NCBI GenBank assembly: GCA_965248105.1
Contig: CBDFIK010000005.1
Span: forward strand, 120,232-184,231
Length of the DNA: 64,000 nt
Reading direction: 5' to 3'
Source: Bryobacterales bacterium
Lineage (GTDB): Bacteria > Acidobacteriota > Terriglobia > Bryobacterales > UBA6623
In this document: positions 29,479-49,292 of the stretch, piece by piece
How positions within the stretch are numbered: the first letter of the stretch is position 1
Layout: each line of letters starts with the position of its first letter
Notes under the pieces: model-generated
The model's database searches: none
Seen by the model: only the letters and a program-made list of their open reading frames with translations
What the model was told of the DNA's origin: nothing
Position numbers and translations under genes: made by a program

Positions 29479-29519
29479 CTTCTGTTCTCGGGAAACCGAA
29501 AAGGGGCAAGCCGGGACAC

Positions 29520-29542: not shown

Positions 29543-29559
29543 AGCCGCACGCGGAAGGG

Positions 29560-32270: not shown

Positions 32271-32271
32271 C

Positions 32272-32990: not shown

Positions 32991-33007
32991 TTTTCGACCG
33001 AACGAGC

Positions 33008-33529: not shown

Positions 33530-33695
33530 GTGGCTGACTAGCCAAGGGTTGTACCCTTGATATTCCAGACCGTCGAGCACCGAGCCGCGACGGTGACGGA
33601 GCGGTCCAGAGATGACACCGCTCGGCAGGGGTGAATTCGCGTGTACCTCAACGCCACCACGTGAAACGAGAACGAAATTCTCGTTCCGACGCGCA
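33530..33695 (-). repeat. F4 structured repeat element, copy A
   Basis: Read on the minus strand: hairpin GGAACGAGAATTTCGTTCTCGTT, then GCCGAGCGGTGTCATCTCTGGACCGCTCCGTCACCGTCGCGGCTC, then hairpin CAAGGGTACAACCCTTGGCTAGT. It aligns with 53689-53948. Confidence 0.75.
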
Positions 33696-33711
33696 TGAGC
33701 GGCTCACCAGC

Positions 33712-35628
33712 ATGCCGACATCAGATAGCCCGCCTCACCAACCTACAGTCGAACTTTCCTGGCGAGCGGTCATTCTCGGCCTCATCATCGGGCTGGTGAT
33801 GACGGCTGCCAATACCTACCTTGGCCTCTACGCCGGCATGACCGTGTCAGCGAGCATCCCGGCGGCGATCGTCTCCATGGGAGTTCTCCGCGCCCTCCTG
33901 CGCCGGGGCACGATCCTCGAGAACAACATCGTGCAAACCATGGCCTCGGCCGGAGAGTCCGTGGCCGCGGGCATCATCTTCACGGTACCGGCACTTGTGA
34001 TCGCTCAGGTGTGGACGGGCTTCCCCTATTGGGAGGTCACCATGATCGGCCTACTCGGAGGCGTCCTGGGCGTCTTATTCATGATCCCGCTGCGAAGAAC
34101 GTTGATCGTCGAGGACAAGGAGTTGATCTACCCCGAGGGCGTCGCTTGCGCCCAGGTTCTCGAAGCGGGCCAGAAAGGCGGCCGGTCGTTGAGGGACATC
34201 GTGGCGGCCGTCGTGGGAGGGGCGCTGTTCAAGTCCTTTATCGGAGTGGTCGGCTTATTGCGCGGAGTCGTGGAGGGAGCTCTCCGCGTAGGCGGAACTC
34301 TCTTCTACTTCGGTACGGACATCTCCGTGGCCCTGCTCGGCGTCGGCGTCATCGTCGGACTGGAAGTTGCCGCGCTCGTTTTCATGGGAGGGGCGGTCGG
34401 CTGGGTAGTTTCGATCCCGCTTTACTACCTCTCGAATCCCGTCCCTGAAGGACATGCCCTTGACGCCGCGTGGGACGCTTGGAGCGGGCACATCCGCTAC
34501 ATGGGTGTGGGAGCGATGATCGTCGGCGGCCTGTGGTCCATGTTCAGCGTGCGGCAAGGAATCGCCAAAGGAATCCGGGAAGCGGTTCAAGGCTTCGGCA
34601 GGCGAGCGGGCGCCCCGAAACAACGCACCGAAGAGGATCTCCCCACCTCCCGTACGTTTGTCATTTTGGTGTTGGCCGTGATCGCGACAATCATTCTCTA
34701 CCGGGCCATCACGGGATCCATTGGTGTCGCAATCACGGCAGGCGTGGTGATGGTCATCGCCTCGTTCTTCTTCGTTGCCGTCTCGAGCTACATCGTTGGA
34801 CTCGTGGGCAGCTCCAATAACCCGATTTCGGGCATGACCATCTGCGCGCTGATCTTTGCCTCCGTCGTCTTGCTGCTCCTGGGTATGAGCGGGACGGTGG
34901 GGATCGTAGGAGCGCTGGGCGTCGCCGGCGTCGTCTGTTGTGCGGCTGCCACCGCCGGCGATACCTCGCAGGACCTAAAAACCGGTTTCCTCGTCAAGGC
35001 AACTCCCTGGAAGCAGCAAGTTGCGCAATTCATCGGCATCTTGATTCCCGCCTTTATCATTGCGCCCGTTTTATCCCTGCTTCACGAAGGCTACGGCATC
35101 GGCACCGGCGGCGAACAGGCCTTGAGAGCACCCCAGGCAACCCTATTCGCTAGCATCGCTAAAGCCCTGTTCGAAGGCACGGGACTGCCGTGGACCATGG
35201 TCAGCATCGGCGTGGGCGTCGCTGTGGGACTGATCGTCCTCGACGAGTCACTAAAGAGAGCCGGTCGTCGCTTCCGGACCCATGTCATGCCGGTGGCCGT
35301 TGGTATCTATCTGCCGTTGAGCTTGTCCGTGCCGATTTTCGCGGGGGGACTGCTAAGCTACCTCTTGCTTAGAACAAGGTCAAGCGTAAGAAGGGCCGCC
35401 GCGGAGGCTCGCCGCCACACCGCCGTTCTGATCAGTTCCGGGCTTATCGCCGGCGAGGCGATCGCCGGCATCCTCATCGCGGTCCCGCGCACGGCGGGAG
35501 TGGAACTGCCGATACCGGTGATCGACAGTGCTTTATTCACGCTCGCCGCGTTCGGAGCCGTGGTAGCCCTCATCTACTACGCGTCCGTACGCGAGAGCGG
35601 CGCCACGGCCGGTGAACACGCCGCGTAG
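33712..35628 (+). CDS. OPT-family oligopeptide transporter
   Basis: Polytopic membrane protein. The N-terminus ..LSWRAVILGLIIGLVMTAANTYLGLYAGMTVSASIPAA.. is typical of the OPT superfamily. The ATG at 33712 is preferred over the ORF start at 33631. Confidence 0.85.
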   Translation: MPTSDSPPHQPTVELSWRAVILGLIIGLVMTAANTYLGLYAGMTVSASIPAAIVSMGVLRALLRRGTILENNIVQTMASAGESVAAGIIFTVPALVIAQVWTGFPYWEVTMIGLLGGVLGVLFMIPLRRTLIVEDKELIYPEGVACAQVLEAGQKGGRSLRDIVAAVVGGALFKSFIGVVGLLRGVVEGALRVGGTLFYFGTDISVALLGVGVIVGLEVAALVFMGGAVGWVVSIPLYYLSNPVPEGHALDAAWDAWSGHIRYMGVGAMIVGGLWSMFSVRQGIAKGIREAVQGFGRRAGAPKQRTEEDLPTSRTFVILVLAVIATIILYRAITGSIGVAITAGVVMVIASFFFVAVSSYIVGLVGSSNNPISGMTICALIFASVVLLLLGMSGTVGIVGALGVAGVVCCAAATAGDTSQDLKTGFLVKATPWKQQVAQFIGILIPAFIIAPVLSLLHEGYGIGTGGEQALRAPQATLFASIAKALFEGTGLPWTMVSIGVGVAVGLIVLDESLKRAGRRFRTHVMPVAVGIYLPLSLSVPIFAGGLLSYLLLRTRSSVRRAAAEARRHTAVLISSGLIAGEAIAGILIAVPRTAGVELPIPVIDSALFTLAAFGAVVALIYYASVRESGATAGEHAA

Positions 35629-35658
35629 AGACCCCTGGCGGCCCATCGTTATCCCGGT

Positions 35659-35667
35659 TGCTACAAT
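35659..35667 (+). promoter_or_regulatory. candidate extended -10 promoter element for rnpB (TGcTACAAT)
   Basis: TGCTACAAT ends 7 nt before the predicted RNase P RNA 5' end. No convincing -35 element was found. Confidence 0.4.
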
Positions 35668-35673
35668 CATCGT

Positions 35674-36094
35674 TGGGCCTGTCGGACGGGCAGTCGCCGC
35701 GCCTTTTTCAGGCGGGGAGGAAAGTCCGGTCTCCGCAGGGCAGCGTGCCGGCTAACGGCCGGGGGGCCACTCTCAAAGGGTGGCCCACGGAAAGTGCCAC
35801 AGAAAACATACCGCCCCGGGGTTTCCTCGGGGTAAGGGTGAAAAGGTGCGGTAAGAGCGCACCGCGTCTCGAGCAATCGCGACGGCAGGGCAAACCCCAC
35901 GCGGAGCAAGACCAAATAGGGGACCAGCGGTGGCCCGCCGCACCAACGGCGGTCGGCTTGCCCTTCGGGGTCGAGCCGGCAGCTGAAGTCCCGGGTAGGT
36001 CGCTTGAGTCCGGCAGCGATGCTCGACCTAGACGAATGGCTGCCGCCCGGGCTCAGCCCGGGTACAGAAACCGGCTTATAGTTCGACAGGCCTC
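35674..36094 (+). ncRNA. rnpB: RNase P RNA, bacterial type A
   Basis: Universal blocks are present: GAGGAAAGTCCGG, ACAGAAAACATACCGCC, GGTAAGGGTGAAAAGGTGCGGTAAGAGCGCACCG, AGCAAGACCAAATAGGG and ACAGAAACCGGCTTAT. P1 pairing is GGCCTGTCG / CGACAGGCC. The ends are accurate to about 5 nt. Confidence 0.92.
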
Positions 36095-36254
36095 TCGCCC
36101 TCATGTTGCTTCGCCGAATCCACGCTATGGACGACCATCGCTCGGGAAGGGTGATTGTCACTGCCACGACCCCGACGGTTGTGGCGTGTTCGACACGCCG
36201 GCTGCGGTATGACAGCAACGCATTCTCCCAGAAACAACCTCGCGGGTGCTTATT

Positions 36255-36350
36255 GAGGCTCGCGAAATACAGTGACTTTGGAACCCGGGCACAGCATGCT
36301 GTGCCCCTACAGTCTGAACACGAGCCATGTCACCATAATTTGCGAGGCTC
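36255..36350 (+). repeat. MITE-like ~95-bp element with terminal inverted repeats and a REP core
   Basis: GAGGCTCGCGAAATACAGTGAC...GGGCACAGCATGCTGTGCCC...GTCACCATAATTTGCGAGGCTC. A second copy lies inverted at 47174-47266. Confidence 0.8.
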
Positions 36351-36383
36351 GGTAGGAAGCCGCCTTCCCGGGGGTGCCGCACT

Positions 36384-37586
36384 GTGAGGCGAGCGTCCGC
36401 TCTTTCCGTTGTCCTTTTGCTCGCGGCGCTGTCCGCGTGGGGCGCCGACGAAGCTGCTCGGTCCGCCGAATATCTGCTTCGCCAAACAGAGACGACGTAC
36501 AACAGCCTCACCAGCTTCCACTTCGCCGCCAAGGAAGTGACCGAAACGCGATCCGGAGGCGCACAGCGCCGGACTTCCGCTCACTACGTAACCGCCCTTG
36601 ACGCCAAGGGACGTTCGCGAGTCGAGATCCGTGACGAATCGAGAAACGGTCTGGCCGTCTTTGACGGTCACAGCAACTGGGTCTATTTGCCCGGCATCAA
36701 ACAGTACACGCGGCAATCTCCGGGCTCGATCCCCGGGTCCCCATCGGCGCCGCGCATCTTCGACGGGGTGAACTTCACGAGGTACGTCGAACGCTATCCG
36801 GCGCGCTACCAGGCCCTCTCCCGCAACCTGGTTAGCGCAACCATCTTGCGCCGCGAGGCGTTGGACGGGGAAGCTCGGGCAGGCACTTACGCTGTAGTCG
36901 AAGCCCGGTACAAACTGCCCTCGGGCACCCCTGTGGGCCAATCAAAACGAACTTTCTGGATCGATGAGAAAGGCTTTCTGATCGCTCGCGAGGTTTCTCG
37001 TGCCACCGCCAAACCGCCGGGCCTCGAACACCCAGTCGAGATCATCCAAACCATCTCGTTTGCTACCGCTCAGGCCAACGAAGAATCGCCGGACTCGCTC
37101 TTTGTTTTCGTTCCGCCTGAGGACGCCGAGCAGGTGGATACCTTCAATCGTCTGGCACGGCGTTCCGCCAAGTTTCTCGGGCGGCGTGCGCAGGACTTTA
37201 ACCTCCACGATCTGAAAGGAAGAACATTCCGCCTCCGAGACCTGCGTGGCAAGATCGTCTTGTTAGACTTCTGGGCCAGCTGGTGCACGCCCTGCCGCAT
37301 CGACCTTCCCCATATCGAGGCTTTGTACAAAGAGTACGCTCGGGAGGAACTCGTGGTGCTCGGCGTCAATGGCGAGTCAGAAACAGCGGCTCGGTCGTTT
37401 ATGGAACAGCAGGGCTACAGCTTCCCATCCTTGGTTGACGAGGGTTACGAGGTTTCCCGCCAGTATCAGGCCACGTCCTTCCCGACCGTCGTGATTGTGG
37501 ACGAGGAAGGCAATATCGCCGCCTATCTAGTCGGCCTGCAGAGCGAAAGCGCTTTGCGCCGGGCGCTCGCCAAGGCAGGCCTCTAG
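36384..37586 (+). CDS. TlpA-like thiol:disulfide oxidoreductase with an N-terminal LolA-like/unknown domain
   Basis: 400 aa with a signal peptide and the thioredoxin motif FWASWCTPC in the C-terminal redoxin domain. Confidence 0.8.
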   Translation: MRRASALSVVLLLAALSAWGADEAARSAEYLLRQTETTYNSLTSFHFAAKEVTETRSGGAQRRTSAHYVTALDAKGRSRVEIRDESRNGLAVFDGHSNWVYLPGIKQYTRQSPGSIPGSPSAPRIFDGVNFTRYVERYPARYQALSRNLVSATILRREALDGEARAGTYAVVEARYKLPSGTPVGQSKRTFWIDEKGFLIAREVSRATAKPPGLEHPVEIIQTISFATAQANEESPDSLFVFVPPEDAEQVDTFNRLARRSAKFLGRRAQDFNLHDLKGRTFRLRDLRGKIVLLDFWASWCTPCRIDLPHIEALYKEYAREELVVLGVNGESETAARSFMEQQGYSFPSLVDEGYEVSRQYQATSFPTVVIVDEEGNIAAYLVGLQSESALRRALAKAGL

Positions 37587-37605
37587 TAGACGACATGGGT
37601 TCCGT

Positions 37606-37940
37606 AACCCATTGATTGCAAGCTGGTTGCGCGAAATTGGGTTTGTTTGGTCATTTCTCTGCTCCCATTGCTGCGCTCCAGTGGTTCGGTGCTCCGATAG
37701 TTCGTTGCCCCGTTTCTGTTCCTCGGTACCACCCGGTCTGAGTTCGATGTCTCCTCGTATCCCCGTGAAGCGATCGGTCAGGTCTCGCTGAGTCGGACCG
37801 TCCAGCCGCACCGGAAACCAATCGCAACCCATTGATTGCAAGCTGGTTGTGCGAAATTGGGTTTGTTTGGTCATTTTTCTCGCTCGTCGAAGGTCGTGCC
37901 GGTCTCCGCAGTCTCCCCCCTTCAGAATCGCGAGCTAAGT
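37606..37940 (+). repeat. F3 dispersed repeat, full copy (core - ~190 bp - core - tail)
   Basis: The core CCCATTGATTGCAAGCTGGTTG(C/T)GCGAAATTGGGTTTGTTTGGTCATTT occurs at 37608-37657 and 37828-37877. The whole unit aligns with 59868-60200. Confidence 0.8.
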
Positions 37941-38021
37941 AGTCCGTTTCATAAAGTTCGGTCACGTATATTTAGAAGCCCGGTGGACGATCGGGAACTT
38001 CGGGCACAGCATGCTGTGCCC
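37941..38021 (+). repeat. F2 repeat element
   Basis: AGTCCGTTTCATAAAGTTCGGTCACGTATATTTAGAAGCCCGGTGGACGATCGGGAACTTCGGGCACAGCATGCTGTGCCC. Confidence 0.8.
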
Positions 38022-39255
38022 GCCTGCACTCGCCCGCCTAGATCCGCCCTACAGGCTTCTTTTGCCCTCGGGAAATGGGTTCGTTCGGTCATTTTTTTTC
38101 ATTCGATCCTGCACTGCTCTCGGGGCTCGACGGAAGCCCATCCGACGCTGATGGCCACCGGAAGTAGGCCCGACCACGCGGTCAACTCTACCGGAGGCTG
38201 ACCGGAGGTCGGCCCAGCGGGCCGGGAGGCCTGCGCCACATCGAGAGCCTGCATCGGCATCCGCAGCCGAAGTGTCTGAAAAGCGCTTTTCGTCAGCCGA
38301 TCGGTACGTGTTTTGGGGGCTAGCGGGTGCTTTTCGCAGGACTAGTCGTAGGGGGCAGAGGGGTGTAGGGCGGTCCTGCCAGTTCTTCTAGCAATCCAAG
38401 TGATTGGATTTGCAAGACATAGCGACCTTTTGAGCGGAGGCCCGAACGCCCCATGGCAGTAAATGGCAGAAATAGAAGAATTTTTTCCTCTGGGATCTCC
38501 GCTTTTTGCCTCCGGTTCTATCATAAGTCGCGGTTGGAGGGTCCGGAGCCAGCCCCAGGACTAAGTGATTGAAACCAGGAGGACGAAAAACTTGAAAATC
38601 GCGTGACCGCCTGGAAGGTGCAAGGGATAACAGGCGAAAAACGAGGCAGGAAGCGCCGTTTTTCCGCGGATAAAACCGCCAAAGGCCACAAGTTTCGAAG
38701 GTTCAGCGAGCTGCGGTGCGGAATAGGAGCTGTCTCACGAACACCGATAGAAGCGCAATAGCAGGATAGGCGGATTGCGGACCTTAACCGTACTCCGCAA
38801 ACTCCACGTGGTTGGTGGGGCCGATAGGTAAACGCTACGCCGTTAGGCAGGATTTGGCCCCTTCAAGCGGACCGAGTGGCGTCCGACAATCCCAAATCGC
38901 GGAAGTAACTTGGACGGGGCGGGACCGCATCTACACCCTTTCTTGACACAACCCCTGGAGGCAGGAGGTCGCCTAGATCCAATCCATGGAAATACGCCGC
39001 GATGCGGTGTACGGACTCGTGCATCTGGCCGAAGGCGGCCACAGTGCGCTGCCTGCTGGCGCTGCGGCGGTCGAGCTGCTACGATGAACTTACTACTTCG
39101 TTGGCCGCCGTCTCGCGGCCCGCGGCGCACAACAGGACTCCTTCCAGGATCGCGCCGTTTCTATTCGTCTCTGCCTGTCACTGTTGTATAGGTTCGAATG
39201 ATCGCGGTGCACGCGTATGTGTTTCGTGCATCCGCAGGAGGAATTCCTTCTTTTT

Positions 39256-40599
39256 ATGTCACCGAAAAATTTTAGCCCCGCCGCCGGGTTCCCCCAATTT
39301 TCTCTGGCGCCCCTGGTGCAGCGAGGCATTGCCGAGGCCGGTTTTTCCGAGCCGTGGCCAATTCAAACAGGGACTATCCCGGCGGCGCTGGCGGGCTCCG
39401 ATATTCTCGGCCTGGCACAGACCGGAACCGGCAAAACCGCCGCGTTCGCACTGCCGATTATCGAGCGGTTGCTCTCCGAGCGACGACCCGGTCCGCGCGC
39501 TCTCATCCTTGCTCCCACTCGGGAACTTGCCACGCAGATCCACAGCGATTTCGAAAAGCTAGCCAAGTTCACTCGCCTTAAGGCCGTCACGGTCTTTGGA
39601 GGTGTGTCCGAGCGCCAGCAAGTCCGCGCCCTGCGTAATCAACCGGATATCGTCATTGCCTGCCCCGGCCGGCTGCTCGACCTACTGCGGCAGGGTAAGG
39701 CGATGTTGGGGCAGATCAAGATCCTCGTTCTCGATGAAGCCGACCAGATGTTCGACATGGGCTTCCTCCCCGACATCCGGAGCATCCTATCAACGCTGCC
39801 GGACAGGCGCCAGAACCTTTTGTTCGCAGCCACTATGCCGGACGAAATCCGCGTATTGGTCAATCAGCTCTTAGAGCGACCCCATGTCGTCGAACTGGCG
39901 CACTCGACGCCGGCTTCCACGATCGAACACGCCCTTTATCTCATCGCGGCGGATCAGAAGATCGACTTGCTCAAGCACTTGCTGGCTAACGACGGGTTCA
40001 CTTCCGCTATTGTCTTTCTGCGAACCAAGCACCGCGCGCGGCGGCTGAGTGTCCAACTCATCAGGATGGGCCATAATGCCGTTGCACTGCAGGGAAACAT
40101 GTCTCAGGGGCAGCGGGACCGCGCCATGGGCGGTTTTCGAGAAGGACGCTTCAACATTCTCGTGGCGACCGATCTTGCGTCCCGGGGCATTGATGTCCCC
40201 GGGGTCTCGCACGTCATTAATTTCGACGTTCCGAACACGCCCGAAGCCTACACACACCGCATCGGGCGCACTGGCCGTGCCGAACGGAGCGGCCGGGCCT
40301 ACACGTTCGTCTCGAGGGAGGACGCCGGAGCTGTGCGAGCCATCGAGCGCAGTCTGGGCTCGGCCATCACTCGACGCCGGATGCCCGGATTCGACACGGT
40401 AACCGTTCTTCCCACGGAACCGCGCCGGCGCCCTTCCCGCAGACGGCGTTCGGCCGGCGGTAGTGTGAAGGGTTCTGGAAAAGGAGAAAGGCATCCCAGC
40501 CCGCGCGGTACCCGGAGACCCAAGGGTCCGGAGTCAACAGGGACGGATCCCGGTGGCCGGGGCGGGTCACCGCACGGCAGGTCGCGACGATCTTCCTAA
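39256..40599 (+). CDS. DEAD-box ATP-dependent RNA helicase
   Basis: Q motif, AQTGTGKT, VLDEADQM (DEAD), HRIGRTGRA, and an Arg/Gly-rich C-terminal tail. The ATG at 39256 is preferred over 39217. Confidence 0.9.
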   Translation: MSPKNFSPAAGFPQFSLAPLVQRGIAEAGFSEPWPIQTGTIPAALAGSDILGLAQTGTGKTAAFALPIIERLLSERRPGPRALILAPTRELATQIHSDFEKLAKFTRLKAVTVFGGVSERQQVRALRNQPDIVIACPGRLLDLLRQGKAMLGQIKILVLDEADQMFDMGFLPDIRSILSTLPDRRQNLLFAATMPDEIRVLVNQLLERPHVVELAHSTPASTIEHALYLIAADQKIDLLKHLLANDGFTSAIVFLRTKHRARRLSVQLIRMGHNAVALQGNMSQGQRDRAMGGFREGRFNILVATDLASRGIDVPGVSHVINFDVPNTPEAYTHRIGRTGRAERSGRAYTFVSREDAGAVRAIERSLGSAITRRRMPGFDTVTVLPTEPRRRPSRRRRSAGGSVKGSGKGERHPSPRGTRRPKGPESTGTDPGGRGGSPHGRSRRSS

Positions 40600-40933
40600 A
40601 CGCTTTCCGGGGTACGGGGGGTGCCCAGCGGGCCGGGCCCAAAATCACGTACTTGGAGGAGCTGAATCCTCCCTTGTCGGCTAGGATTTACCTATCCTGC
40701 TTGCAAGTCCCGTAGGACCCCGCTAGCCCGTCGGGAGCCGAGCGCCACAACGGAGGCGAGCATTCTCACACTTACTGGAGGGTGTGCAGCACTGGAGGTG
40801 TGGTTTTGTTTCCGTTAGTTTCGGCCGGGGGTGAGAAATGCGGGGCAAGTGTCGATACCGTTCGCCTAAATAGCGGCTACGGGTGCTCGAATTGCACCCT
40901 GGGATTGCGAGCTCGACGCAAGGGTTGTAGGGA

Positions 40934-41740
40934 GGCATTGTCACGTTAATCGTGTTGGGCCGCAAAGGCCCGCATGGATTCCCTTTCAGGCGGCCGCACT
41001 CGCAGTTTCCCATACATTGAATGCGTCTTTCCGAAATCGTTTGAACGTGAGTCTATTGCATAAATGACGTTGGAGGTAAAAGGTATTGTAAACGGCGGCT
41101 TGGATGTTCAGGAAGCGTTGGGCCGAACCCGGTGATTTGAAACGCTGCTGTTTTCGTTCTCGACGCCGGACGGGCTGATGCGAATTCTCGGCACGATTAT
41201 TCGCACGCTTATTGTCGATGTGTTGAGCCGTTAGGCCGAGGATTCGAATGGCGACGTGATAGGACCTGAGTTTATCGGTTGTGATCCGGGTGGGTGTCCA
41301 GCCTTGTTTCTTCAGCAGTTTGCGCATCAACTTCAAGGCTGCTTTGGCGTTCCGCTTCGATTGCACGAGGAAATCCAAGACCTCGCCTCCATTGTCGATC
41401 GCGCGCCATAACCAATAACGCTGCCCACGAATCACGATGACCATCTCATCAAGATGCCAATAGCCGTTGGGAATGGGTCGCATGTGGCGCAGGTTTTGGG
41501 CAATCGGCGTACCAAACTTGAGGAACCAGCGCCGTACGCTCTCGTAGGAAATATCCAGGCCTCGCTCCGCAAGAAGATCCTCCACATCCCGATAGCTCAG
41601 AGTGAACCTGGCATAGAGCCAAACGGCGCGTCGAATGATTTCCGGTGGAAAGCGGTGACGTTTGAAGGAGATGGTGTCCATCCCCAAAGGCTACACCGAA
41701 ATCACCAGATCGAGATTAGAGCACTTAACGTGACAATGCC
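40934..41740 (-). mobile_element. IS6-family insertion sequence, copy 1 (807 bp)
   Basis: Terminal inverted repeats GGCATTGTCACGTTAA at both ends and a single 233-aa transposase gene. Near-identical to 47394-48200. Confidence 0.9.
40986..41687 (-). CDS. IS6-family DDE transposase
   Basis: FKRHRFPPEIIRRAVWLYARFTLSYRDVEDLLAERGLDISYESVRRWFLKFG... is the typical IS6/IS26-family N-terminus. The size also fits. Confidence 0.9.
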   Translation of the reverse strand: MGMDTISFKRHRFPPEIIRRAVWLYARFTLSYRDVEDLLAERGLDISYESVRRWFLKFGTPIAQNLRHMRPIPNGYWHLDEMVIVIRGQRYWLWRAIDNGGEVLDFLVQSKRNAKAALKLMRKLLKKQGWTPTRITTDKLRSYHVAIRILGLTAQHIDNKRANNRAENSHQPVRRRERKQQRFKSPGSAQRFLNIQAAVYNTFYLQRHLCNRLTFKRFRKDAFNVWETASAAA

Positions 41741-41766
41741 GCCAGCTGACGGTCGAAGCACGTGAC

Positions 41767-41792
41767 GTACGGGCACGACATGTCGCGCCCGC
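41767..41792. repeat. REP-like palindrome (A/B hybrid)
   Basis: GTACGGGCACGACATGTCGCGCCCGC, 27 bp from the inner end of IS6 copy 1. Confidence 0.75.
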
Positions 41793-42064
41793 GCCGAGAC
41801 GAGTGTCGACGCGGCAGACGTAGGCGTCTGCGCCACAACATCAGACACCGAAGTCCAACGTTGCAGCTCTGCGCGTAAGGCAACAACCACCCTTGTGGCG
41901 CAGGTCCCCAGACCTGCCGTGTCGGTACTCCTACCGACACCGCCCGCTGGGCGCGGCAAACTATATTGGGACTTTTGGGGCTGCAGGACGCGTCAGGGAA
42001 AGCGGAACAGGAAGCGCCTTTCGCTGACCGAAACGTGTCGGCTGACGACTGGCGGGAGCCGGTC

Positions 42065-42553
42065 CTACATCTTGTACTGCCCGAGGTCTTCGTCGGAGAG
42101 GTTTTCGAGCCAACGCCGTAGCTCTTCGCTATTGGTTTTATCGCTGAAGACGCCACTGACTTTCGACGACTTCAGTACGTCTTCCTCGACGTAGATGGGG
42201 CAATCGAGACGCAAGGCGACGGCCAGGGCGTCGCTAGGGCGGGAGTCGATCGCGATCAAGTCGCCGTTATGTTCCACCCAGATTACGGCGTAGAACGTGT
42301 CGTCCTGTAGGTCGCTGACGACGACCTTGCGAACCCCGGTCGTGAGTCCTAGAAACACGTTCTTGATCAAATCGTGTGTCATCGGTCGGGGGGTGGCGAC
42401 CTTTTCGATCTCCAAGGCGATGGCGTTGGCCTCATAGACACCGACCCAGATGGGCAGCACGGACTTGCCATCCAAGTCTTTGAGGATGACGATCGGCATG
42501 TTGGTCACCGGGTCCATCATCAGACCCCTAATCTTCATTTCAACTTCCATCAC
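42065..42553 (-). CDS. bifunctional nuclease (BFN/DUF151) family protein
   Basis: ..PIVILKDLDGKSVLPIWVGVYEANAIALEIE...RPMTHDL...DSRPSDALAVALR is the family pattern. Confidence 0.85.
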   Translation of the reverse strand: MMEVEMKIRGLMMDPVTNMPIVILKDLDGKSVLPIWVGVYEANAIALEIEKVATPRPMTHDLIKNVFLGLTTGVRKVVVSDLQDDTFYAVIWVEHNGDLIAIDSRPSDALAVALRLDCPIYVEEDVLKSSKVSGVFSDKTNSEELRRWLENLSDEDLGQYKM

Positions 42554-42573
42554 CTACCCCCTCTGGTTTCTCA

Positions 42574-44253
42574 CTACTGAAGGATCCTAAAGCCATGAAA
42601 AGTCGAAGTGGCCGGTTTAGCGACAAGTTCTCCGACCAAGGAGTTGGGACCGGAGCCGGTAACACGAACCCGGCAATAGCCGCCCCGAAGGTCCTCTCCC
42701 AAGCTGAGGCCGCTGGGATCGGCGAAGTTGAGGACTCGATTCCGCGTCGTGCGGCCGATCCACTGTTGAAACTTCTCACGACGGCCCTCGACAAGCACTT
42801 CTTCTTCCCTGCCAATGAGATCGGCGTTGCGCCGGATTTGGATATGACGTTGTTTCTCCTGCAGAACCGACAGCCGCTGGGACTTTACGTCCTCCGGCAC
42901 CTGTTCGTTATAGGAAATCGCCGCTGTGCTGGCACGCGGTGAGTACTTAAACGAGAAAACGGAGTCGTAGTGGACCTCGTCGAGTAGCGACAGCGTCTGC
43001 TCGAAGTCGTCTTCCGTCTCGCCCGGGAATCCCACGATGATGTCGGTGCTGAGGGAGATATCGCGACGAGATACGCGGACGCTTTCGATCCTTCTTAAGT
43101 ACTCCTCGCGGGTGTAGTCTCTCCGCATGCGCGCCAGTATGCGAGTGGAGCCGGACTGCACTGGCAAATGAACATGGTCGCACAGCGCAGGATTCTCGTC
43201 GATCGCCTCGACAATGTCAGGAGTGAAGTCGCGAGGGTGGGAGGTCGTAAAGCGAACCCGCCTGACGCCGGGAATGCGGCCGACCGCCGCCAACATCTGG
43301 GCGAAGTTCCAGCTCTGGTGGGAAGGGTCGCGATAGCTGTTAACGTTTTGCCCCAGTAGCTGAATCTCACTGTACCCACTCGCCGCTAGCCGCCGGGCCT
43401 CATCCAGGACGCTCGAGCTGGTGCGGCTCCGTTCGGGTCCGCGGGTGAACGGTACCACGCAGTAGGCGCAGCTCTTGTCGCAGCCCTCGATGATCGTGAT
43501 GAATGCCTTGTAGGGATTGTCGCGCCGGGTGAGCGGCGTCTCGAAGGTTTCGTCGGTATCGAGGGCCAGCCCGGTGACGCGGGCTTCGCCGGCTTCTACG
43601 CGTTGGAGCAACTGGGCAAGCTGGTTGTAGCTCGCGGAGCCGCAGACGAGATGAACATGAGGCGCCTGGTCGAAAACCCGTTCGCCTAGATGCTGCGCGA
43701 CACAACCGAGAACCCCGAAGATCTTGCCCTCGGACTTGGTCTTTTTGAAGTTAGCAAGCCGCGAAAAGACCTTCTGCTCGGCCTTATCGCGGATGCTGCA
43801 GGTGTTGTAAAGCACGAGCTGGGCATCTTCGGGTCGCTCGACCTGGTGATAGTCCTGAGCGATGAGCGTGCCGCGGACCTTTTCGCTGTCGTGGACGTTC
43901 ATCTGACAGCCAAACGTCTCGATGTAGAAGGTTTTCCCCACGACTCGGCCCAACTCGTTCTCAGTATAGCAATCGGGAATCAGGCGCCCGCCGCTCGCGT
44001 CTTGCCGTGAAAAATTAGTCGACACCCCGAGGGCGTCGTTGCCTGGCAGCCGAGCATTCTTGCCCATCAACATCATCTCGACGCTGGCCTGTCGGCTCAA
44101 CGGTGCGGATCTTGCACCCCCGAGGCGAGTATCGACCAGCCGTTTTTTCGATGCCCTCATTCGAAACCCCGGCATTCCTGGTCGATAAGAATCACAGCCA
44201 AGGAGTGCGCTTTTGAAACCCCGCGAGGAGCGCCGCCAGAGCGCTCGGCACAT
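42574..44253 (-). CDS. miaB: tRNA-2-methylthio-N6-dimethylallyladenosine synthase MiaB
   Basis: UPF0004 domain FYIETFGCQMN, radical-SAM motif CDKSCAYCVVP and a C-terminal TRAM domain. The real start is probably internal (Met32 at 44160 or Met63 at 44067). Confidence 0.9.
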   Translation of the reverse strand: MCRALWRRSSRGFKSALLGCDSYRPGMPGFRMRASKKRLVDTRLGGARSAPLSRQASVEMMLMGKNARLPGNDALGVSTNFSRQDASGGRLIPDCYTENELGRVVGKTFYIETFGCQMNVHDSEKVRGTLIAQDYHQVERPEDAQLVLYNTCSIRDKAEQKVFSRLANFKKTKSEGKIFGVLGCVAQHLGERVFDQAPHVHLVCGSASYNQLAQLLQRVEAGEARVTGLALDTDETFETPLTRRDNPYKAFITIIEGCDKSCAYCVVPFTRGPERSRTSSSVLDEARRLAASGYSEIQLLGQNVNSYRDPSHQSWNFAQMLAAVGRIPGVRRVRFTTSHPRDFTPDIVEAIDENPALCDHVHLPVQSGSTRILARMRRDYTREEYLRRIESVRVSRRDISLSTDIIVGFPGETEDDFEQTLSLLDEVHYDSVFSFKYSPRASTAAISYNEQVPEDVKSQRLSVLQEKQRHIQIRRNADLIGREEEVLVEGRREKFQQWIGRTTRNRVLNFADPSGLSLGEDLRGGYCRVRVTGSGPNSLVGELVAKPATSTFHGFRILQ

Positions 44254-44320
44254 GTGTTCGGAGTTTGTTCAGGTCTCGTTTTGAGACGAGCGGGGCCGGG
44301 AGATTTCGGAAATCGGCGTC

Positions 44321-44551
44321 TTGGAAGACGTTAGCCTGAGAGGAGTCTCCATCAGCTTGAACATCCCCATTCCAGTAGGAACCAGCGCCCGGATTCACGC
44401 CCGGGACTTCGACGGCCAAGTGGAAGTGCGCTACTCGGAGCCAGGCGACTACGGGTATTTGGTCGGGGTCGAGTTTGCCGATGGCTACCGCTGGGACGAG
44501 GGGAAATGGGCGCCCGAGCATCTGCTGGCTGTTCCCGATGGCGAGTGGTAG
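44321..44551 (+). CDS. small PilZ-like/hypothetical protein
   Basis: 76-aa ORF with a TTG start. EDVSLRGVSISL resembles the D.S..G half of a PilZ motif, but no RxxxR is present. Confidence 0.3.
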   Translation: MEDVSLRGVSISLNIPIPVGTSARIHARDFDGQVEVRYSEPGDYGYLVGVEFADGYRWDEGKWAPEHLLAVPDGEW

Positions 44552-44580
44552 TTGCCTTCGAAACGTCAACCGTCCTTCGT

Positions 44581-44711
44581 ACTCCGTTTCATAAGTTCGG
44601 TCACACACATCAGAAGCCAAGGGGATGATAGGGAACTTCGCCGACTGCATGCCGATCCCCTAAATTGTCGGGTGCCCCGGTAAATCCGTAGGGGCACAGC
44701 ATGCTGTGCCC
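44581..44711 (+). repeat. F2 repeat element (extended, with one degenerate and one intact REP)
   Basis: ACTCCGTTTCATAAGTTCGGTCACACACATCAGAAGCC...GGGAACTTCGCCGACTGCATGCCGATCCCC...GTAGGGGCACAGCATGCTGTGCCC. Confidence 0.75.
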
Positions 44712-44831
44712 ACCTTCATTCGCCGAAAGTGTGCTTATTTCCGTTAGATCCGGCTTCGACCCGAGCGTTGGTTTCCACCTTCGATCCTGTCACTATAGGA
44801 TTGATAGGTCCCGCCGTCGAACGAACATTCC

Positions 44832-45818
44832 ATGAAGCCACGCATCTTTTCGGGCATGCAGCCCTCCGGCAATCTTCATATTGGAAACTACTTAGGTGCT
44901 CTGAAGACGTGGGCGGACATTCAGCATCAGTACGAGCCGATATTCTGCATCGTCGACCAGCACGCCATTACCCTCTACCAGGAGCCCCGGCAGCTTCAGC
45001 AGAAGATCGAAGAGGTGGCGGCGCTTTACGTGGCCGCGGGCATTGATCCTGCCCACTCGGCAATTTTCGTCCAGTCGGCGGTTCCGGCGCATGTGGAGTT
45101 GGCGTGGGTGTTTACTTGCGTTACCCCCATGGGCTGGCTGAGCCGTATGACGCAGTTCAAGGCGAAGGCCGAGACCCAGGAATCGGTGGGAACGGGACTA
45201 TTTGTTTATCCGGCGCTGATGGCGGCGGACATCCTTCTCTACCAAGCCTCGATCGTCCCGGTGGGCGAAGATCAGGCCCAGCATTTGGAGTTGACCCGCG
45301 ACATCGCCCAACGCTTCAATTCGCTCTACGGGGAGACCTTCGTGGTTCCCGAGACCCAACTGCCGGCCGTGGGCGCTCGCATCATGGGCTTGGATAACCC
45401 GGCGGAAAAAATGAGCAAGTCTACGCCGGGAACCAGCCATGCCGTCGATGTGCTCGATCCGCCGTCGCGCATCAAGAAACTTATCATGCGAGCGGTGACT
45501 GACTCCAAACCGGCTGTCGATTTCGACGAGATCGGGCCGGGAGTCGCAAACCTACTGACCATCTTTCAAGCTTTCAGTGGCTGGAGCGACGATCAGTTGC
45601 GATCCCACTTTGACGGTAAGCAGTACGGCGGTCTGAAGAAGGACGTCGCGGAAATGGTGGTGGCGAAACTGGAGCCGATCCAGAAGAAGTATCAAGAACT
45701 GATGGCTGAGCCGGGTGCTATTCGGAAAATCCTCACCGCCGGCGCCGAACGCGTCTCACCCATCGCCGAGTCGACGATGAAGTTGGTGCGGGAGCGCACC
45801 GGATTGTACCGCCTGTAG
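44832..45818 (+). CDS. trpS: tryptophan--tRNA ligase
   Basis: 328 aa with the class I motifs GNLHIGNYLG (HIGH) and KMSKS. Confidence 0.95.
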   Translation: MKPRIFSGMQPSGNLHIGNYLGALKTWADIQHQYEPIFCIVDQHAITLYQEPRQLQQKIEEVAALYVAAGIDPAHSAIFVQSAVPAHVELAWVFTCVTPMGWLSRMTQFKAKAETQESVGTGLFVYPALMAADILLYQASIVPVGEDQAQHLELTRDIAQRFNSLYGETFVVPETQLPAVGARIMGLDNPAEKMSKSTPGTSHAVDVLDPPSRIKKLIMRAVTDSKPAVDFDEIGPGVANLLTIFQAFSGWSDDQLRSHFDGKQYGGLKKDVAEMVVAKLEPIQKKYQELMAEPGAIRKILTAGAERVSPIAESTMKLVRERTGLYRL

Positions 45819-45844
45819 TTGCGTGGTCGTTTTCCCGAAATACC

Positions 45845-47146
45845 GTGTCGAGTTCTCGTGTCCGTCCCGCGCATAGCTTGTCTCTAGCCGGATACTACCG
45901 GCTCCTTCGCGACAATCTGAATTTTCGCCGGCTTTGGCTCGCCCAGCTCATCAGCGGCCTAGGCGACTGGTTCTATTCGGTCGCCATCTATGGGCTGCTG
46001 CTTGAGTTGACGGGATCGGCCGAAGCGGTAGCCTGGGCGGTCGTGCTGCAGATTCTGCCGTTCTTCCTCGCCAGCCCCACCGCCGGCGCGGTGAATGACC
46101 GGGTCAGTCGGCGGCGGGTGATGATCGCCACCGACGTGCTGAGATCCCTGGTCGTGCTGGGGATGCTCTTCATCGAACGAGAGGAGCAGATCGGGCTACT
46201 CTATCTGCTGCTGGGGGTCGAAGTCGTGACCGCCGCATTTTTTGAGTCTGCTCGAAGCGCGGCGATCCCGAACGTTGTGGACAGTCACCAGATCGCGACT
46301 GCCAATGCGGTGTCGTCTACGACTTGGTCGGCTACGGTTACGGTCGGAGCGGGCCTGGGTGGGCTGGCGGTTGCCTTTCTGGGCCGGCTGCCGGCGTTTG
46401 TGATCAACTCTGCTTCGTTCCTCCTCTCCGCCTGGTTTATTGCTAGGGCACGATTCGGCGAGCCGCACCTCGAGCTCTACCCCAACCTGAAATGGCGTGA
46501 GATCTTGGGCTTTGGCCCGATCGCGGAGGGCTTTCGGTACGTGGCCCGCGACTGGCGTCTGGTGGCCCTGATGGCCGCCAAGCTCGGGTTGGGCATCTTG
46601 GGTGCGCGGGCGGTTCTGGTTTCCATCCTAGGTCGCCAGGACATGCGGATCGGCGGCCACCCGACCCTTGGAATGACAACGCTGTTCATGTTTCAGGGAC
46701 TAGGGTCGGTTATGGGCCCATTGCTGGCCGGCCCGTTGGTGGGAGAACAGCAGCGGCGAATGCGCTGGTCGGTTCTGGTCGGATACCTGGCGGCGGGGTC
46801 TTTTTACATGGCCTTCAGCGGCGCTCAGAGCTTGGCGTTGGCCTGGATGAGTATGGTCGTGGCCCATGCCGGGGGTGCGATCGTTTGGGTGTTCTCGAAC
46901 ATGCTTCTCTACTCGAACACGGAAGACCGCTTCCGGGGCCGCGTGTTCGCCGCCGATCTTGGTATGTTCACGGTCACCGCTTCGATTGCCAGCTACGTTT
47001 GCGGGAGAGCGATCGACTTAGGCGTAACGGCCCGGGCCGCCACGTTCGCTGTGGGAGCGGCGATGTTACTGCCGGCCCTCGCTTGGGCCGTCAGCATGCG
47101 CAGCTTGTGGGACTCCGGCGACCAGGTTTCCGGACAACGAACCTAA
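45845..47146 (+). CDS. MFS transporter
   Basis: 433 aa with about 12 predicted hydrophobic spans. The N-terminus ..FRRLWLAQLISGLGDWF.. is typical of the enterobactin-exporter-like MFS group. Confidence 0.8.
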   Translation: MSSSRVRPAHSLSLAGYYRLLRDNLNFRRLWLAQLISGLGDWFYSVAIYGLLLELTGSAEAVAWAVVLQILPFFLASPTAGAVNDRVSRRRVMIATDVLRSLVVLGMLFIEREEQIGLLYLLLGVEVVTAAFFESARSAAIPNVVDSHQIATANAVSSTTWSATVTVGAGLGGLAVAFLGRLPAFVINSASFLLSAWFIARARFGEPHLELYPNLKWREILGFGPIAEGFRYVARDWRLVALMAAKLGLGILGARAVLVSILGRQDMRIGGHPTLGMTTLFMFQGLGSVMGPLLAGPLVGEQQRRMRWSVLVGYLAAGSFYMAFSGAQSLALAWMSMVVAHAGGAIVWVFSNMLLYSNTEDRFRGRVFAADLGMFTVTASIASYVCGRAIDLGVTARAATFAVGAAMLLPALAWAVSMRSLWDSGDQVSGQRT

Positions 47147-47173
47147 CACTTGCTCCGACACCGTTCACTTACT

Positions 47174-47266
47174 GAGTCTCGCGAATTGTCGTGACATGAC
47201 CCATGTTCAGATCGTAGGGGCACGGCATGCCGTGCCCGTCTTCCAAGGTCACTGTATTTTGCGAGC
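47174..47266 (-). repeat. MITE-like ~95-bp element, second copy (inverted relative to 36255-36350)
   Basis: GAGTCTCGCGAATTGTCGTGAC...GTAGGGGCACGGCATGCCGTGCCC...GTCACTGTATTTTGCGAGC. Confidence 0.8.
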
Positions 47267-47321
47267 TTTAATAATCTGTGATGGAAAACCAACGAGTCTT
47301 CCCCGCATTGAACCGGTTGTC

Positions 47322-47352
47322 GTGTAGGGGCGCGACATGTCGCGCCCTGGGG
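47322..47352. repeat. REP-like palindrome (type B)
   Basis: GTGTAGGGGCGCGACATGTCGCGCCCTGGGG, 47 bp from the inner end of IS6 copy 2. Confidence 0.8.
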
Positions 47353-47393
47353 ACCACCTGTTGCCACCTTCCGCCACCTTCCGTGTCCCTACA

Positions 47394-48200
47394 GGCATTG
47401 TCACGTTAAGTGCTCTAATCTCGATCTGGTGATTTCGGTGTAGCCTTTGGGGATGGACACCATCTCCTTCAAGCGTCACCGCTTTCCACCGGAAATCATT
47501 CGACGCGCCGTTTGGCTCTATGCCAGGTTCACTCTGCGCTATCGGGATGTGGAGGATCTTCTTGCGGAGCGAGGCCTGGATATTTCCTACGAGAGCGTAC
47601 GGCGCTGGTTCCTCAAGTTTGGTACGCCGATTGCCCAAAACCTGCGCCACATGCGACCCATTCCCAACGGCTATTGGCATCTTGATGAGATGGTCATCGT
47701 GATTCGTGGGCAGCGTTATTGGTTATGGCGCGCGATCGACAATGGAGGCGAGGTCTTGGATTTCCTCGTGCAATCGAAGCGGAACGCCAAAGCAGCCTTG
47801 AAGTTGATGCGCAAACTGCTGAAGAAACAAGGCTGGACACCCACCCGGATCACAACCGATAAACTCAGGTCCTATCACGTCGCCATTCGAATCCTCGGCC
47901 TAACGGCTCAACACATCGACAATAAGCGTGCGAATAATCGTGCCGAGAATTCGCATCAGCCCGTCCGGCGTCGAGAACGAAAACAGCAGCGTTTCAAATC
48001 ACCGGGTTCGGCCCAACGCTTCCTGAACATCCAAGCCGCCGTTTACAATACCTTTTACCTCCAACGTCATTTATGCAATAGACTCACGTTCAAACGATTT
48101 CGGAAAGACGCATTCAATGTATGGGAAACTGCGAGTGCGGCCGCCTGAAAGGGAATCCATGCGGGCCTTTGCGGCCCAACACGATTAACGTGACAATGCC
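47394..48200 (+). mobile_element. IS6-family insertion sequence, copy 2 (807 bp)
   Basis: Same terminal inverted repeats and the same transposase as copy 1 (1 aa and at least 2 nt differences seen), in the opposite orientation. Confidence 0.9.
47447..48148 (+). CDS. IS6-family DDE transposase
   Basis: 233 aa, identical to 40986-41687 except for Ser/Arg at residue 30 (RFTLSY versus RFTLRY). Confidence 0.9.
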   Translation: MGMDTISFKRHRFPPEIIRRAVWLYARFTLRYRDVEDLLAERGLDISYESVRRWFLKFGTPIAQNLRHMRPIPNGYWHLDEMVIVIRGQRYWLWRAIDNGGEVLDFLVQSKRNAKAALKLMRKLLKKQGWTPTRITTDKLRSYHVAIRILGLTAQHIDNKRANNRAENSHQPVRRRERKQQRFKSPGSAQRFLNIQAAVYNTFYLQRHLCNRLTFKRFRKDAFNVWETASAAA

Positions 48201-48209
48201 CCCAAAACC

Positions 48210-49292
48210 GTGTTTTCAAACCGCCGGGTCGAAAACATCCTCGTCATCGGCGGAGCCGGCTACATCGGCAGCGTCCTGGTGAGACAGTTGCTCGCCCGCG
48301 GCTACCGAGTTCGGGTTCTCGATCGGTTGATGTTCGGCCGCGAGCCGATCCTCGATTTATCCTTGTTGCCGGGTTTTGAATTGCTCCAGGGGGACTTCCG
48401 GAACGCCCATATCCTCGCGAAAGCAGCGCAGCAGATGGACGCGGTCATCCACCTGGGTGCGATCGTCGGAGACCCTGCCTGTGCTCTCGACGAGCGAGCG
48501 GCCTTGGAAACCAACTATGAAGCCACGGCGCTGGTCACACAGATTGCGAAGGATCTGGGCCTATCGAGGGTGGTTTTCGCTTCCACCTGTAGCGTCTACG
48601 GAGCGAGCAGCCACACCGTTGATGAGACGGCGATCCCGCGACCGGTTTCACTGTACGGGGCGACCAAGGCCGATTCCGAAAAGATCTTGCTGGCTTCCGC
48701 GAGCGACAGCCTCCATCCCACGGTGCTACGAATTGGAACCGCGTTCGGGTGGTCCCATCGCCCTCGCTTTGACCTGGCCGTGAATCTACTGACAGCAAAG
48801 GCGCAGATCGAAGGCAAGATCGTTGTCTATAACCCGGACCAGTGGCGACCCTTCGTTCACGTGCGCGATATTGGCTCCGCGTTTTGCCGGGTGCTGGAAG
48901 CACCCTTGTGGAAAGTGAGCGGCCAGATCTTTAACGTGGGATCCAACGAAACCAACCACCAACTCATCGATGTAGCCCGAACGATCGGTCGTCTCCTCCC
49001 CGAGGTCTCCGTCGTCTACGAAACCAACTCGGACCGAAGAGACTATCGCGTCAGCTTCGACAAAATCCGTAGTGTTTTGGGATTCGAGTGCCGGACGTCG
49101 CTGCTCCAAGGCATTCAGGAAGTTTCTCTTGCGCTCCGCCGCGGAGCTGTTGGAGACTACACCGAACCGATCTACCACAACCACCGAAGAGCCGCACTTA
49201 ATGGTGCCGCCGGGTCAGCCGCACAGCGGCGACCGATCCCAGCCGCGCTACCGGCCATGTCAAGCCGAGCCGCCAGAGCGCGAACACTCTAG
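48210..49292 (+). CDS. NAD-dependent epimerase/dehydratase (extended SDR)
   Basis: Rossmann motif VIGGAGYIGS and a catalytic Y..K (YGATKAD). The GTG start lies only 10 bp after the IS6 end. Confidence 0.85.
   Translation: MFSNRRVENILVIGGAGYIGSVLVRQLLARGYRVRVLDRLMFGREPILDLSLLPGFELLQGDFRNAHILAKAAQQMDAVIHLGAIVGDPACALDERAALETNYEATALVTQIAKDLGLSRVVFASTCSVYGASSHTVDETAIPRPVSLYGATKADSEKILLASASDSLHPTVLRIGTAFGWSHRPRFDLAVNLLTAKAQIEGKIVVYNPDQWRPFVHVRDIGSAFCRVLEAPLWKVSGQIFNVGSNETNHQLIDVARTIGRLLPEVSVVYETNSDRRDYRVSFDKIRSVLGFECRTSLLQGIQEVSLALRRGAVGDYTEPIYHNHRRAALNGAAGSAAQRRPIPAALPAMSSRAARARTL

Follow-up and report, generated by a model that had tools for sequence, protein, structure and literature searches.

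An inverted pair of IS6-family copies encloses an inverted trpS-miaB block next to a 3,659-bp deletion in an uncultured Bryobacterales chromosome

In the 64,000-nucleotide stretch of Bryobacterales DNA analysed here (the window), two inverted copies of one IS6-family element enclose a 5.65-kb block containing trpS and miaB. From the comparison with IS-free relatives, which supply the structure before the event, it is clear that this block has been inverted, that a single-copy target has been duplicated over 8 bp, and that a neighbouring segment has been deleted. We consider it probable (about 0.6) that the arrangement arose through a replicative IS6-family history, in which one IS would have produced a deletion in cis and an inversion in trans; from the end product we infer transposase-catalysed replicative steps rather than homologous recombination, as well as the order of the steps. 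The locus is a textbook IS26-type signature and a clean example of it in an uncultured acidobacterium, not a new mechanism, and inversion plus deletion by an IS pair, an event type already well known, opens no long-standing question. It documents, down to the base pair and against natural "before" alleles, that the chromosomes of uncultured Acidobacteriota are remodelled by IS6-family elements as resistance plasmids are by IS26. Deletions are hard to identify unless the before and after replicons are both available (He et al., PMC4471558), and at the trpS-miaB locus both alleles are in hand. The locus can serve as a worked example and can help to annotate the lineage, with its IS hot spots, its loss of glycan genes and a pseudogene.

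Copy 1 occupies 40934-41740 on the minus strand (IRR 40934-40949, IRL 41725-41740; transposase gene 40986-41681) and copy 2 occupies 47394-48200 on the plus strand (IRL 47394-47409, IRR 48185-48200; transposase gene 47453-48148). Both are 807 bp long with terminal inverted repeats, as the first-pass annotation had recognized, and these repeats are perfect over 16 bp (GGCATTGTCACGTTAA). Its description of the copies as facing each other has to be corrected, since the two transposase genes point away from each other, leftward in copy 1 and rightward in copy 2, which places the two IRL ends inside the pair. The element is a member of the IS6 (IS26) family, for which one DDE transposase of some 213-254 aa with a match to the family models was required: that of the window has 231 aa and scores 222 bits (copy 1) and 217.5 bits (copy 2) against NCBIfam NF033587 transpos_IS6 (cut-off 125 bits) and 113.9 bits (E 8e-33) against Pfam PF13610 DDE_Tnp_IS240 (cut-off 27 bits). 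The 807-bp length and the perfect 16-bp repeats also agree with the published description of the family, about 700-890 bp with short, generally perfect inverted repeats (PMC7986276). Among the plasmid-borne IS6 transposases of PLSDB, identity to that of the window does not exceed 63-65%, and an exact-protein look-up with the copy-2 transposase (231 aa, ATG start) returned no record. A match to GACAATGCC at 29662 was considered as a solo IS6 end and rejected, lying as it does within an unrelated IS3-type integrase fragment.

The two copies, previously said to differ by at least 2 nt, differ by exactly 2 nt over the 807 bp. At IS position 80 (window 41661 in copy 1), copy 1 has A and copy 2 has G, a synonymous difference (AAA/AAG, Lys); at IS position 144, copy 1 has A (Ser29) and copy 2 has C (Arg29). 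This S29R change (window 47537) is private to copy 2, and 117 of 118 homologues have Ser at the residue concerned. G80 and A144 are ancestral, as found in two other loci (L084 and L085) and in 117/118 homologues, and each window copy thus carries one private derived change (A80 in copy 1, C144 in copy 2), so that both copies trace to one identical sequence. Their divergence is 0.25%, compared with 0.09% between the window and the IS-free relative L001 in the flanks. The two differences seen, against about 0.7 expected by our estimate, are not a significant excess, but neither does the copy divergence speak in favour of a very recent duplication.

The empty allele was taken from an 897-kb contig (L001/L002, ENA ERZ26694896) that is 99.9% identical to the window; a contig from an independent sample (L003, ERZ25067264) and contigs from other Bryobacterales species (L004 and L009) were also used. 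By blastn, L001 1-11717 aligns with window 29216-40933, and L001 11710-17362 aligns in reverse with window 47393-41741 (99.91%, 5,653 bp); the 8-bp overlap of these two segments, at L001 11710-11717, is a single TGTAGGGA. The ancestral order is helicase(+), TGTAGGGA, MFS(-), trpS(-), PilZ-like(-), miaB(+) and BFN(+), followed by epimerase-325, methyltransferase, GT4 glycosyltransferase, epimerase-384 and then the cytochromes. With respect to the helicase, the trpS-miaB block of the IS-free relatives runs the other way round than in the window, in line with the inversion first proposed for this locus, and the uninterrupted site that had been predicted, CCGTG TCCCTACA ACCCTTGCG, is present in them. 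When the 120-bp empty site was rebuilt from the window, it matched 120/120 in L001/L002 and in L003, with identities of 99.2% in L004, 97.5% in L088, 91.7% in L086 and 89.9% in L009. The outgroups L004 and L009 have the L001 arrangement. Outgroup tblastn showed that trpS-MFS is widely conserved and that the helicase gene is without an MFS neighbour in other species, and the outgroup test was therefore done on the ~260 bp of common intergenic DNA. When the helicase look-up was repeated with a short flank, its result could not be told apart from the ancestral arrangement; this suggests one more contig of the ancestral type.

Read along the IS, copy 1 lies between CAGCTGGC and TCCCTACA, and copy 2 between TCCCTACA and CCCAAAAC. 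The octamer TGTAGGGA at 40926-40933 (+), outside copy 1 at its IRR, is the exact reverse complement of TCCCTACA at 47386-47393 (+), inside the IS pair at the IRL of copy 2; flank comparison bears out this relationship, already spotted in the first-pass annotation, and likewise the lack of an own direct repeat at either copy. The target is thus duplicated in inverted form with one octamer per IS, one outside the pair and one inside. The empty allele has one TGTAGGGA and the window two, each abutting an IS end, and it is only this empty-site comparison that reveals the 8-bp target-site duplication, because the single IS copies examined have no direct repeats around them. The octamer is rare, with two occurrences of TGTAGGGA and one of TCCCTACA within the 64 kb, and by our own arithmetic a chance match in the expected configuration has a probability of about 2 x 4^-8. 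An 8-bp direct repeat was also absent from three other loci with the same IS (96.5-99.1% identity), which is what frequent replicative intramolecular events would lead one to expect.

There is no such match in the second flank pair. On the inner side of copy 1, GCCAGCTG at 41741-41748 (+), which is the reverse complement of CAGCTGGC, corresponds to L001 17355-17362, and the outer flank of copy 2, CCCAAAAC at 48201-48208 (+), corresponds to L001 21022-21029; CAGCTGGC and CCCAAAAC are different, so the split direct repeat that a trans inversion would leave is not seen here. Judged from the flanks, the signature of a one-step inversion is therefore incomplete, with only one of the two pairs matching. 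The other event that had been suspected behind this mismatch turns out to be a deletion of 3,659 bp next to the IS, between these two points of the empty allele. The missing segment, L001 17363-21021, has its left endpoint at 41741-41748, which is intergenic and downstream of BFN, and its right endpoint at 48201-48208, inside codons 22-24 of the 384-aa epimerase gene. It contains an epimerase, a methyltransferase and a GT4 glycosyltransferase gene plus the first 21 codons of the second epimerase, and is present in L001, L086 and L088 and nowhere in the 64-kb window. The cost to the cell is three glycan-synthesis genes and the native 5' end of a fourth.

What is left of that fourth gene is a 5'-truncated NAD-dependent epimerase/dehydratase at 48210-49292 on the plus strand (Pfam Epimerase, E 2e-42). 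L001, L086 and L088 have the 384-aa gene, with an N-terminal region that is identical across the three relatives; relative to it, the gene in the window has lost its native upstream region and first 21 codons and has kept the Rossmann motif, at residues 12-18 of the remaining ORF. Translation might now start at the GTG at 48210. A promoter and terminator scan across the structure found no outward promoter from an IS end, with counts equal to the shuffled expectation, and the idea of an IS-borne hybrid promoter driving the truncated epimerase was dropped for want of support. An exact-protein look-up with the truncated 360-aa epimerase also gave no record, and neither this nor the copy-2 transposase look-up retrieved a second carrier of the derived allele.

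The inverted segment itself, 41741-47385, contains whole genes for BFN, miaB, a PilZ-like ORF, trpS and MFS. Pfam and NCBIfam confirmed the earlier assignments of the BFN nuclease (42065-42550, minus; BFN_dom), MiaB (42574-44253, minus; TIGR01574, 467 bits), TrpS (44832-45818, plus; TIGR00233, 344 bits) and the MFS transporter (45845-47146, plus); for the small PilZ-like ORF (44213-44551, plus), a relative gave a weak PilZ match. The miaB coordinate 44253 is the longest-ORF start, and the 528-aa gene call of the relatives corresponds to about 44160. The PilZ-like ORF is broken in the window by a private TGG>TGA stop at 44284. Both breakpoints of the inverted block are intergenic, and trpS, miaB, BFN and MFS are therefore intact.

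In the replicative history that we favour, one IS copy would first have entered the interval from BFN to epimerase-384. An intramolecular replicative transposition in cis could then have deleted the 3,659 bp from the BFN-downstream site (CAGCTGGC) to codon 21 of epimerase-384, leaving the IS without a direct repeat. A second intramolecular replicative event, this time in trans, would have had as its target the octamer TGTAGGGA between the convergent helicase and MFS genes. It would have created the second, inverted IS copy, turned round the 5.65 kb between the copies and left the octamer duplicated in inverted form, one outside copy 1 and one inside copy 2; one private point mutation in each copy would have followed. 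The mirror order, namely insertion at TGTAGGGA, trans inversion into CAGCTGGC and then cis deletion, would give the same product, and no intermediate allele (for example, IS plus deletion without inversion) was found among the relatives. The IS6 family has been described as moving only through cointegrates (PMC7986276), and the structures seen are compatible with this mode of transposition. It would follow that an IS on the chromosome cannot give rise to a further copy there without inversion or deletion of the DNA in between. A cis deletion without a direct repeat is a published outcome (PMC4471558; PMC7986276), and the two inverted IS copies bracket a segment that is inverted with respect to the pre-event arrangement, as a trans inversion demands.

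For plasmids of the Enterobacteriaceae, He et al. (2015, mBio, PMC4471558) reconstructed trans inversion and cis deletion by IS26, and IS26 intramolecular transposition has been reviewed by Varani et al. 2021 (Mobile DNA, PMC7986276). The window resembles those cases in the IS family, the similar size and simple organisation of the element, the inverted segment between two inverted copies, the inverted octamer duplication with one octamer per IS, the lack of an own direct repeat at either copy, and the adjacent deletion that stops exactly at an IS terminus. It differs from them in that the host is an uncultured Bryobacterales (Acidobacteriota) chromosome instead of an enterobacterial resistance plasmid, that the cargo is housekeeping (trpS, miaB) rather than resistance genes, that the before and after alleles both come from natural populations, and that the replicative mechanism is deduced from sequence and not demonstrated.

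A different route to the same structure, which we regard as possible but doubtful, would be independent insertion of two or three IS copies, each with an 8-bp direct repeat, followed by homologous recombination: one copy would have landed at TGTAGGGA and one or two beside the glycan genes, RecA-dependent exchange between inverted copies would have turned the 5.65-kb block, and recombination between direct copies or another process would have removed the 3.66 kb. Its end product is the same as the replicative one, and the sequence does not tell the two routes apart; the deletion could equally be explained by recombination between two direct copies. At 99.75% identity, the two 807-bp repeats lend themselves well to recombination and, as in IS- or rRNA-mediated chromosomal inversions, could flip the intervening DNA reversibly, and other IS families have inserted in the same two intergenic regions in L086 and L088, making repeated independent insertions plausible. 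Unlike such inversions, however, the window has an 8-bp target duplication, which recombination alone does not make, and at least one transposition into TGTAGGGA is therefore required. The recombination route is also the longer one, calling for three insertions plus two recombinations where the replicative history has three transpositions, and in a cointegrate-only family each simple insertion calls for an outside donor replicon and resolution (PMC7986276). The derivation of both copies from one identical ancestral sequence counts against it as well, and no direct-repeat-flanked copy was found at the site in about seven related contigs.

It is quite unlikely that the orientation is an artefact or reflects a mixed population, with the block ancestral in the genome or in most cells and its flanks misjoined across the 807-bp inverted repeats, in which case copy 1 would be a simple insertion between direct TGTAGGGA repeats. 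The two isomers do have all four IS-flank junctions in common and differ only in the pairing across the IS, and both copy-distinguishing SNPs lie within 144 bp of IRL, so that short reads could not phase them with the IRR junctions. However, long reads are suggested by a 64-kb contig that passes through two near-identical 807-bp repeats and resolves the copy SNPs, and also by the contig names of the closest relatives, which we take to be in a long-read assembler style; the insertions, target duplication and deletion would be real even with the orientation wrong. A live flip-flop in a symbiont population, with both trpS-miaB orientations coexisting and with the IS-driven loss of three surface-glycan genes and the read-through from the transposase gene into the remaining epimerase being selected surface variation rather than neutral decay, is an unlikely prospect too; if true, the locus would be a naturally occurring case, open to phasing, of a chromosome remodelled by IS6 away from clinical plasmids. 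Coincidental insertion of the copies beside REP-flank motifs, or an ancestral window orientation, can hardly be credited. GTAGGG/CCCTAC motifs do flank REP-like palindromes in the window, with the target 45 bp from one of them, but the IS-free alleles, which led us to reject both ideas, have the two left flanks contiguous around one TGTAGGGA, perfectly in two samples and with conservation in two other species, and the duplicated target and truncated gene mark the IS-bearing allele as the derived state. Neither of the two findings named beforehand as speaking against an inversion was thus made: the present orientation is not ancestral, and the octamer is a single site rather than two REP flanks.

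The suggestion that the structure is a composite-transposon-like unit is weak, and we reject it. Like the IS6 pseudo-compound transposons Tn4352, Tn610, Tn4003 and Tn2680, it has two IS6 copies around passenger genes, but the IS6 compound transposons require direct flanking copies, with an inverted pair stalling at the cointegrate stage (PMC7986276), and the window copies are inverted. The whole unit is without an 8-bp direct repeat of its own, its outer flanks being TGTAGGGA and CCCAAAAC. Also unlike those transposons, the passenger block is confined to its native chromosomal locus in every relative: among the matches listed, none of the 80 loci has a transposase beside trpS-MFS, and the pair lies in its native context in about 70 of these 80 Bryobacterales/Acidobacteriota loci.

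From the repeat scan and the reading of the sequence, it is clear that the two 807-bp IS copies (copy 1, minus strand, 40934-41740; copy 2, plus strand, 47394-48200) lie inverted relative to each other, as the first-pass annotation had described, each with perfect 16-bp terminal inverted repeats GGCATTGTCACGTTAA. That annotation gave a Ser/Arg change and at least 2 nt between them; direct comparison finds exactly two differences, at IS position 80 (A in copy 1, G in copy 2, synonymous) and position 144 (A and Ser29 in copy 1, C and Arg29 in copy 2). The copies had also been said to face each other, but the transposase genes in fact diverge, with both left terminal repeats (IRL) inside the pair. 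In IS orientation the flanks read CAGCTGGC-copy 1-TCCCTACA and TCCCTACA-copy 2-CCCAAAAC. Thus 40926-40933 is the reverse complement of 47386-47393 and the remaining flank pair is unmatched, both as first noted; the target octamer occurs only three times in the 64-kb window, both strands counted.

Between the copies lie a BFN-domain nuclease and an MFS transporter (both profile matches), MiaB (TIGR01574, 467 bits), TrpS (TIGR00233, 344 bits) and a small ORF whose relative gives a weak PilZ match. A DEAD-box helicase stands to the left; to the right come an NAD-dependent epimerase and then multihaem cytochromes. In a scan with one genome per species, this locus was found in Bryobacterales (Acidobacteriota) MAGs. 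Six relatives, one of them a species at ~89% nucleotide identity, have the PilZ-like ORF (44213-44551, plus strand, 112 aa) intact; in the window it looks like a fresh pseudogene, since a private TGG>TGA change at 44284 turns Trp24 into a stop.

Exact-protein look-ups with the helicase and the MFS transporter led to contigs without the IS. One of these, L001 (ENA ERZ26694896, 897 kb), aligns to the window by blastn in three segments: 1-11717 with 29216-40933 (99.92%, same orientation), 11710-17362 with 47393-41741 (99.91%, reversed) and 21018-21383 with 48197-48562 (99.73%, same orientation). The first two overlap by 8 bp, and this overlap (11710-11717) is a single TGTAGGGA. The junction is likewise contiguous in contig L003 of a different sample (ERZ25067264). 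We have also rebuilt a 120-bp empty site from the window: both IS copies were taken out, the block was turned back and a single octamer was left. This site agrees with L001/L002 and L003 at 120/120 positions, and with the related contigs L004, L088, L086 and L009 at 99.2%, 97.5%, 91.7% and 89.9%, L004 and L009 being different species (~96% and ~90% nucleotide identity). The L001 alignment and these matches show that the IS-free order is ancestral and the window arrangement derived, and that the octamer represents one duplicated site rather than two REP flanks. The rebuilt site rules out both a chance or REP coincidence of the 8-mer and an ancestral window orientation. The comparison with relatives that the first-pass annotation proposed thus bears out its inversion reading: IS-free contigs hold the uninterrupted site, with the trpS-miaB block reversed relative to the window.

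The annotation further supposed another event behind the unmatched flanks, and this can be identified as a deletion of 3,659 bp, since L001 17363-21021 has no counterpart anywhere in the 64-kb window. The interval, present in L001, L086 and L088, encodes an epimerase/dehydratase (325 aa), a SAM methyltransferase (350 aa), a GT4 glycosyltransferase (399 aa) and the beginning of an epimerase (384 aa). The left endpoint, between CAGCTGGC and ACCCTCC, is intergenic, downstream of BFN; the right endpoint, between ACTGCT and CCCAAAAC, follows codon 21 of the epimerase of 384 aa. Both coincide exactly with the two unmatched IS flanks, so the mismatch is explained by a deletion ending at an IS terminus. 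What is left of the epimerase ORF (48210-49292) retains the Rossmann motif, but the native 5′ end and the sequence upstream of it are gone; scanning for consensus promoters gave nothing above shuffled expectation. Three glycan-synthesis genes, and a fourth in its 5′ part, are missing from the derived genome. The inverted block breaks at two intergenic positions, one in the convergent helicase/MFS spacer and the other in the BFN-epimerase spacer, and trpS, miaB, BFN and MFS are therefore intact.

Intramolecular replicative transposition of IS26 in cis deletes the intervening DNA and leaves the IS without a direct repeat (PMC4471558; PMC7986276). Working from the IS flanks and the geometry of the empty allele, we find two three-step histories that fit. 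In one, the IS would arrive in the BFN-to-epimerase interval, cause a cis deletion, and then invert the block in trans into TGTAGGGA; in the other, it would arrive at TGTAGGGA, invert in trans into CAGCTGGC, and then delete in cis from copy 2. Both yield the observed structure and the sequence favours neither order. The same end product would result if the IS had inserted at TGTAGGGA in the ordinary way and the inverted copies had then undergone RecA-dependent recombination, but this route requires more events and, in a family that moves through cointegrates, an outside donor replicon for each simple insertion; we regard it as rather unlikely.

Two further IS copies, in contigs L084 and L085, and 118 homologous proteins served to polarise the two SNPs. 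They give G80 and A144 (Ser29) as ancestral, leaving one private derived change in each window copy, so that both copies trace to one identical sequence. This is as duplication predicts, and a common outside source would look alike. The same SNPs bear on whether the assembly picked the block orientation arbitrarily. All four junctions are common to both isomers and both SNPs lie within 144 bp of the IRL, so a short-read assembly could have done so; however, that one 64-kb contig spans both copies and keeps their specific SNPs apart points to long reads, and we consider such an artefact very improbable. The event is a textbook IS26-type rearrangement, a clean example of modest novelty in a new host.

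The composite-transposon-like unit suggested earlier is not supported. In compound transposons of the IS6 family the IS copies are direct repeats; a pair in inverted orientation would not get past the cointegrate stage (PMC7986276). Here the copies are inverted, no direct repeat belongs to the bracketed unit as a whole, and ~70 of 80 related loci have the trpS-MFS pair in its native place, with no transposase match among these loci. Re-inversion through recombination between the copies is plausible.

The transposase (231 aa counted from ATG) matches Pfam DDE_Tnp_IS240 and scores 217-222 bits against NCBIfam NF033587 "IS6 family transposase" (cut-off 125). Its nearest annotated plasmid-borne relatives are alphaproteobacterial IS6-family transposases (53-65% identity), and more than 100 metagenomic homologues reach 82-98%; the element is a new IS6 family member in a new host. 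Of 118 homologues, 117 have Ser at residue 29, in the N-terminal region, and the S29R change (window 47537, codon 29) may therefore impair the copy 2 transposase.

Other copies of this IS (96.5-99.1% identity), at L084/L085 2442-3248, L093 1442-2248 and L091/L092 1442-2246, lack an 8-bp direct repeat at all three loci, resembling what was reported for IS26 (He et al.). The L084/L085 copy, with flanks CTCAGGAC / GTCCAGAG (a 7-of-8 inverted repeat), adjoins AbiEii/DUF6088, type I restriction HsdR, a resolvase and an IS21 helper gene, surroundings that resemble those of a mobile element. An IS3-type integrase fragment (rve_2/rve_3; motif NPYDNA..ESF..TLK) occupies window ~29530-30090 and, in the IS-free L001, 315-875; it contains the GACAATGCC match at 29662, which has nothing to do with the IS6 ends.

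In closely related contigs, other ISs with DDE_5 and DDE_Tnp_1 transposases (L088 3491-5310 and 10612-12347; L086 10612-12446) occupy the same two intergenic regions as the IS6 element, one ~150 bp from TGTAGGGA and a second in place of a 150-bp stretch directly upstream of the endpoint at CAGCTGGC; the two spacers appear to be IS landing zones. In L004, of the 96%-identical species, synteny of 1-8133 with the window breaks at 44049, within the miaB 5′ end, and methylmalonyl-CoA mutase, DUF480 and B12-binding genes stand in place of miaB-BFN, so this locus has undergone a different rearrangement in another species. A family of GC-rich, REP-like palindromes (GGGCGCGACATGTCGCGCCC and its variants), intergenic and often flanked by GTAGGG...CCCTAC, includes 29530-29545, 41767-41790, 44688-44711, 47214-47237 and 47324-47347; one such palindrome is 45 bp away from the IS target TGTAGGGA, which adjoins two tandem copies of CGGAAGGTGG.
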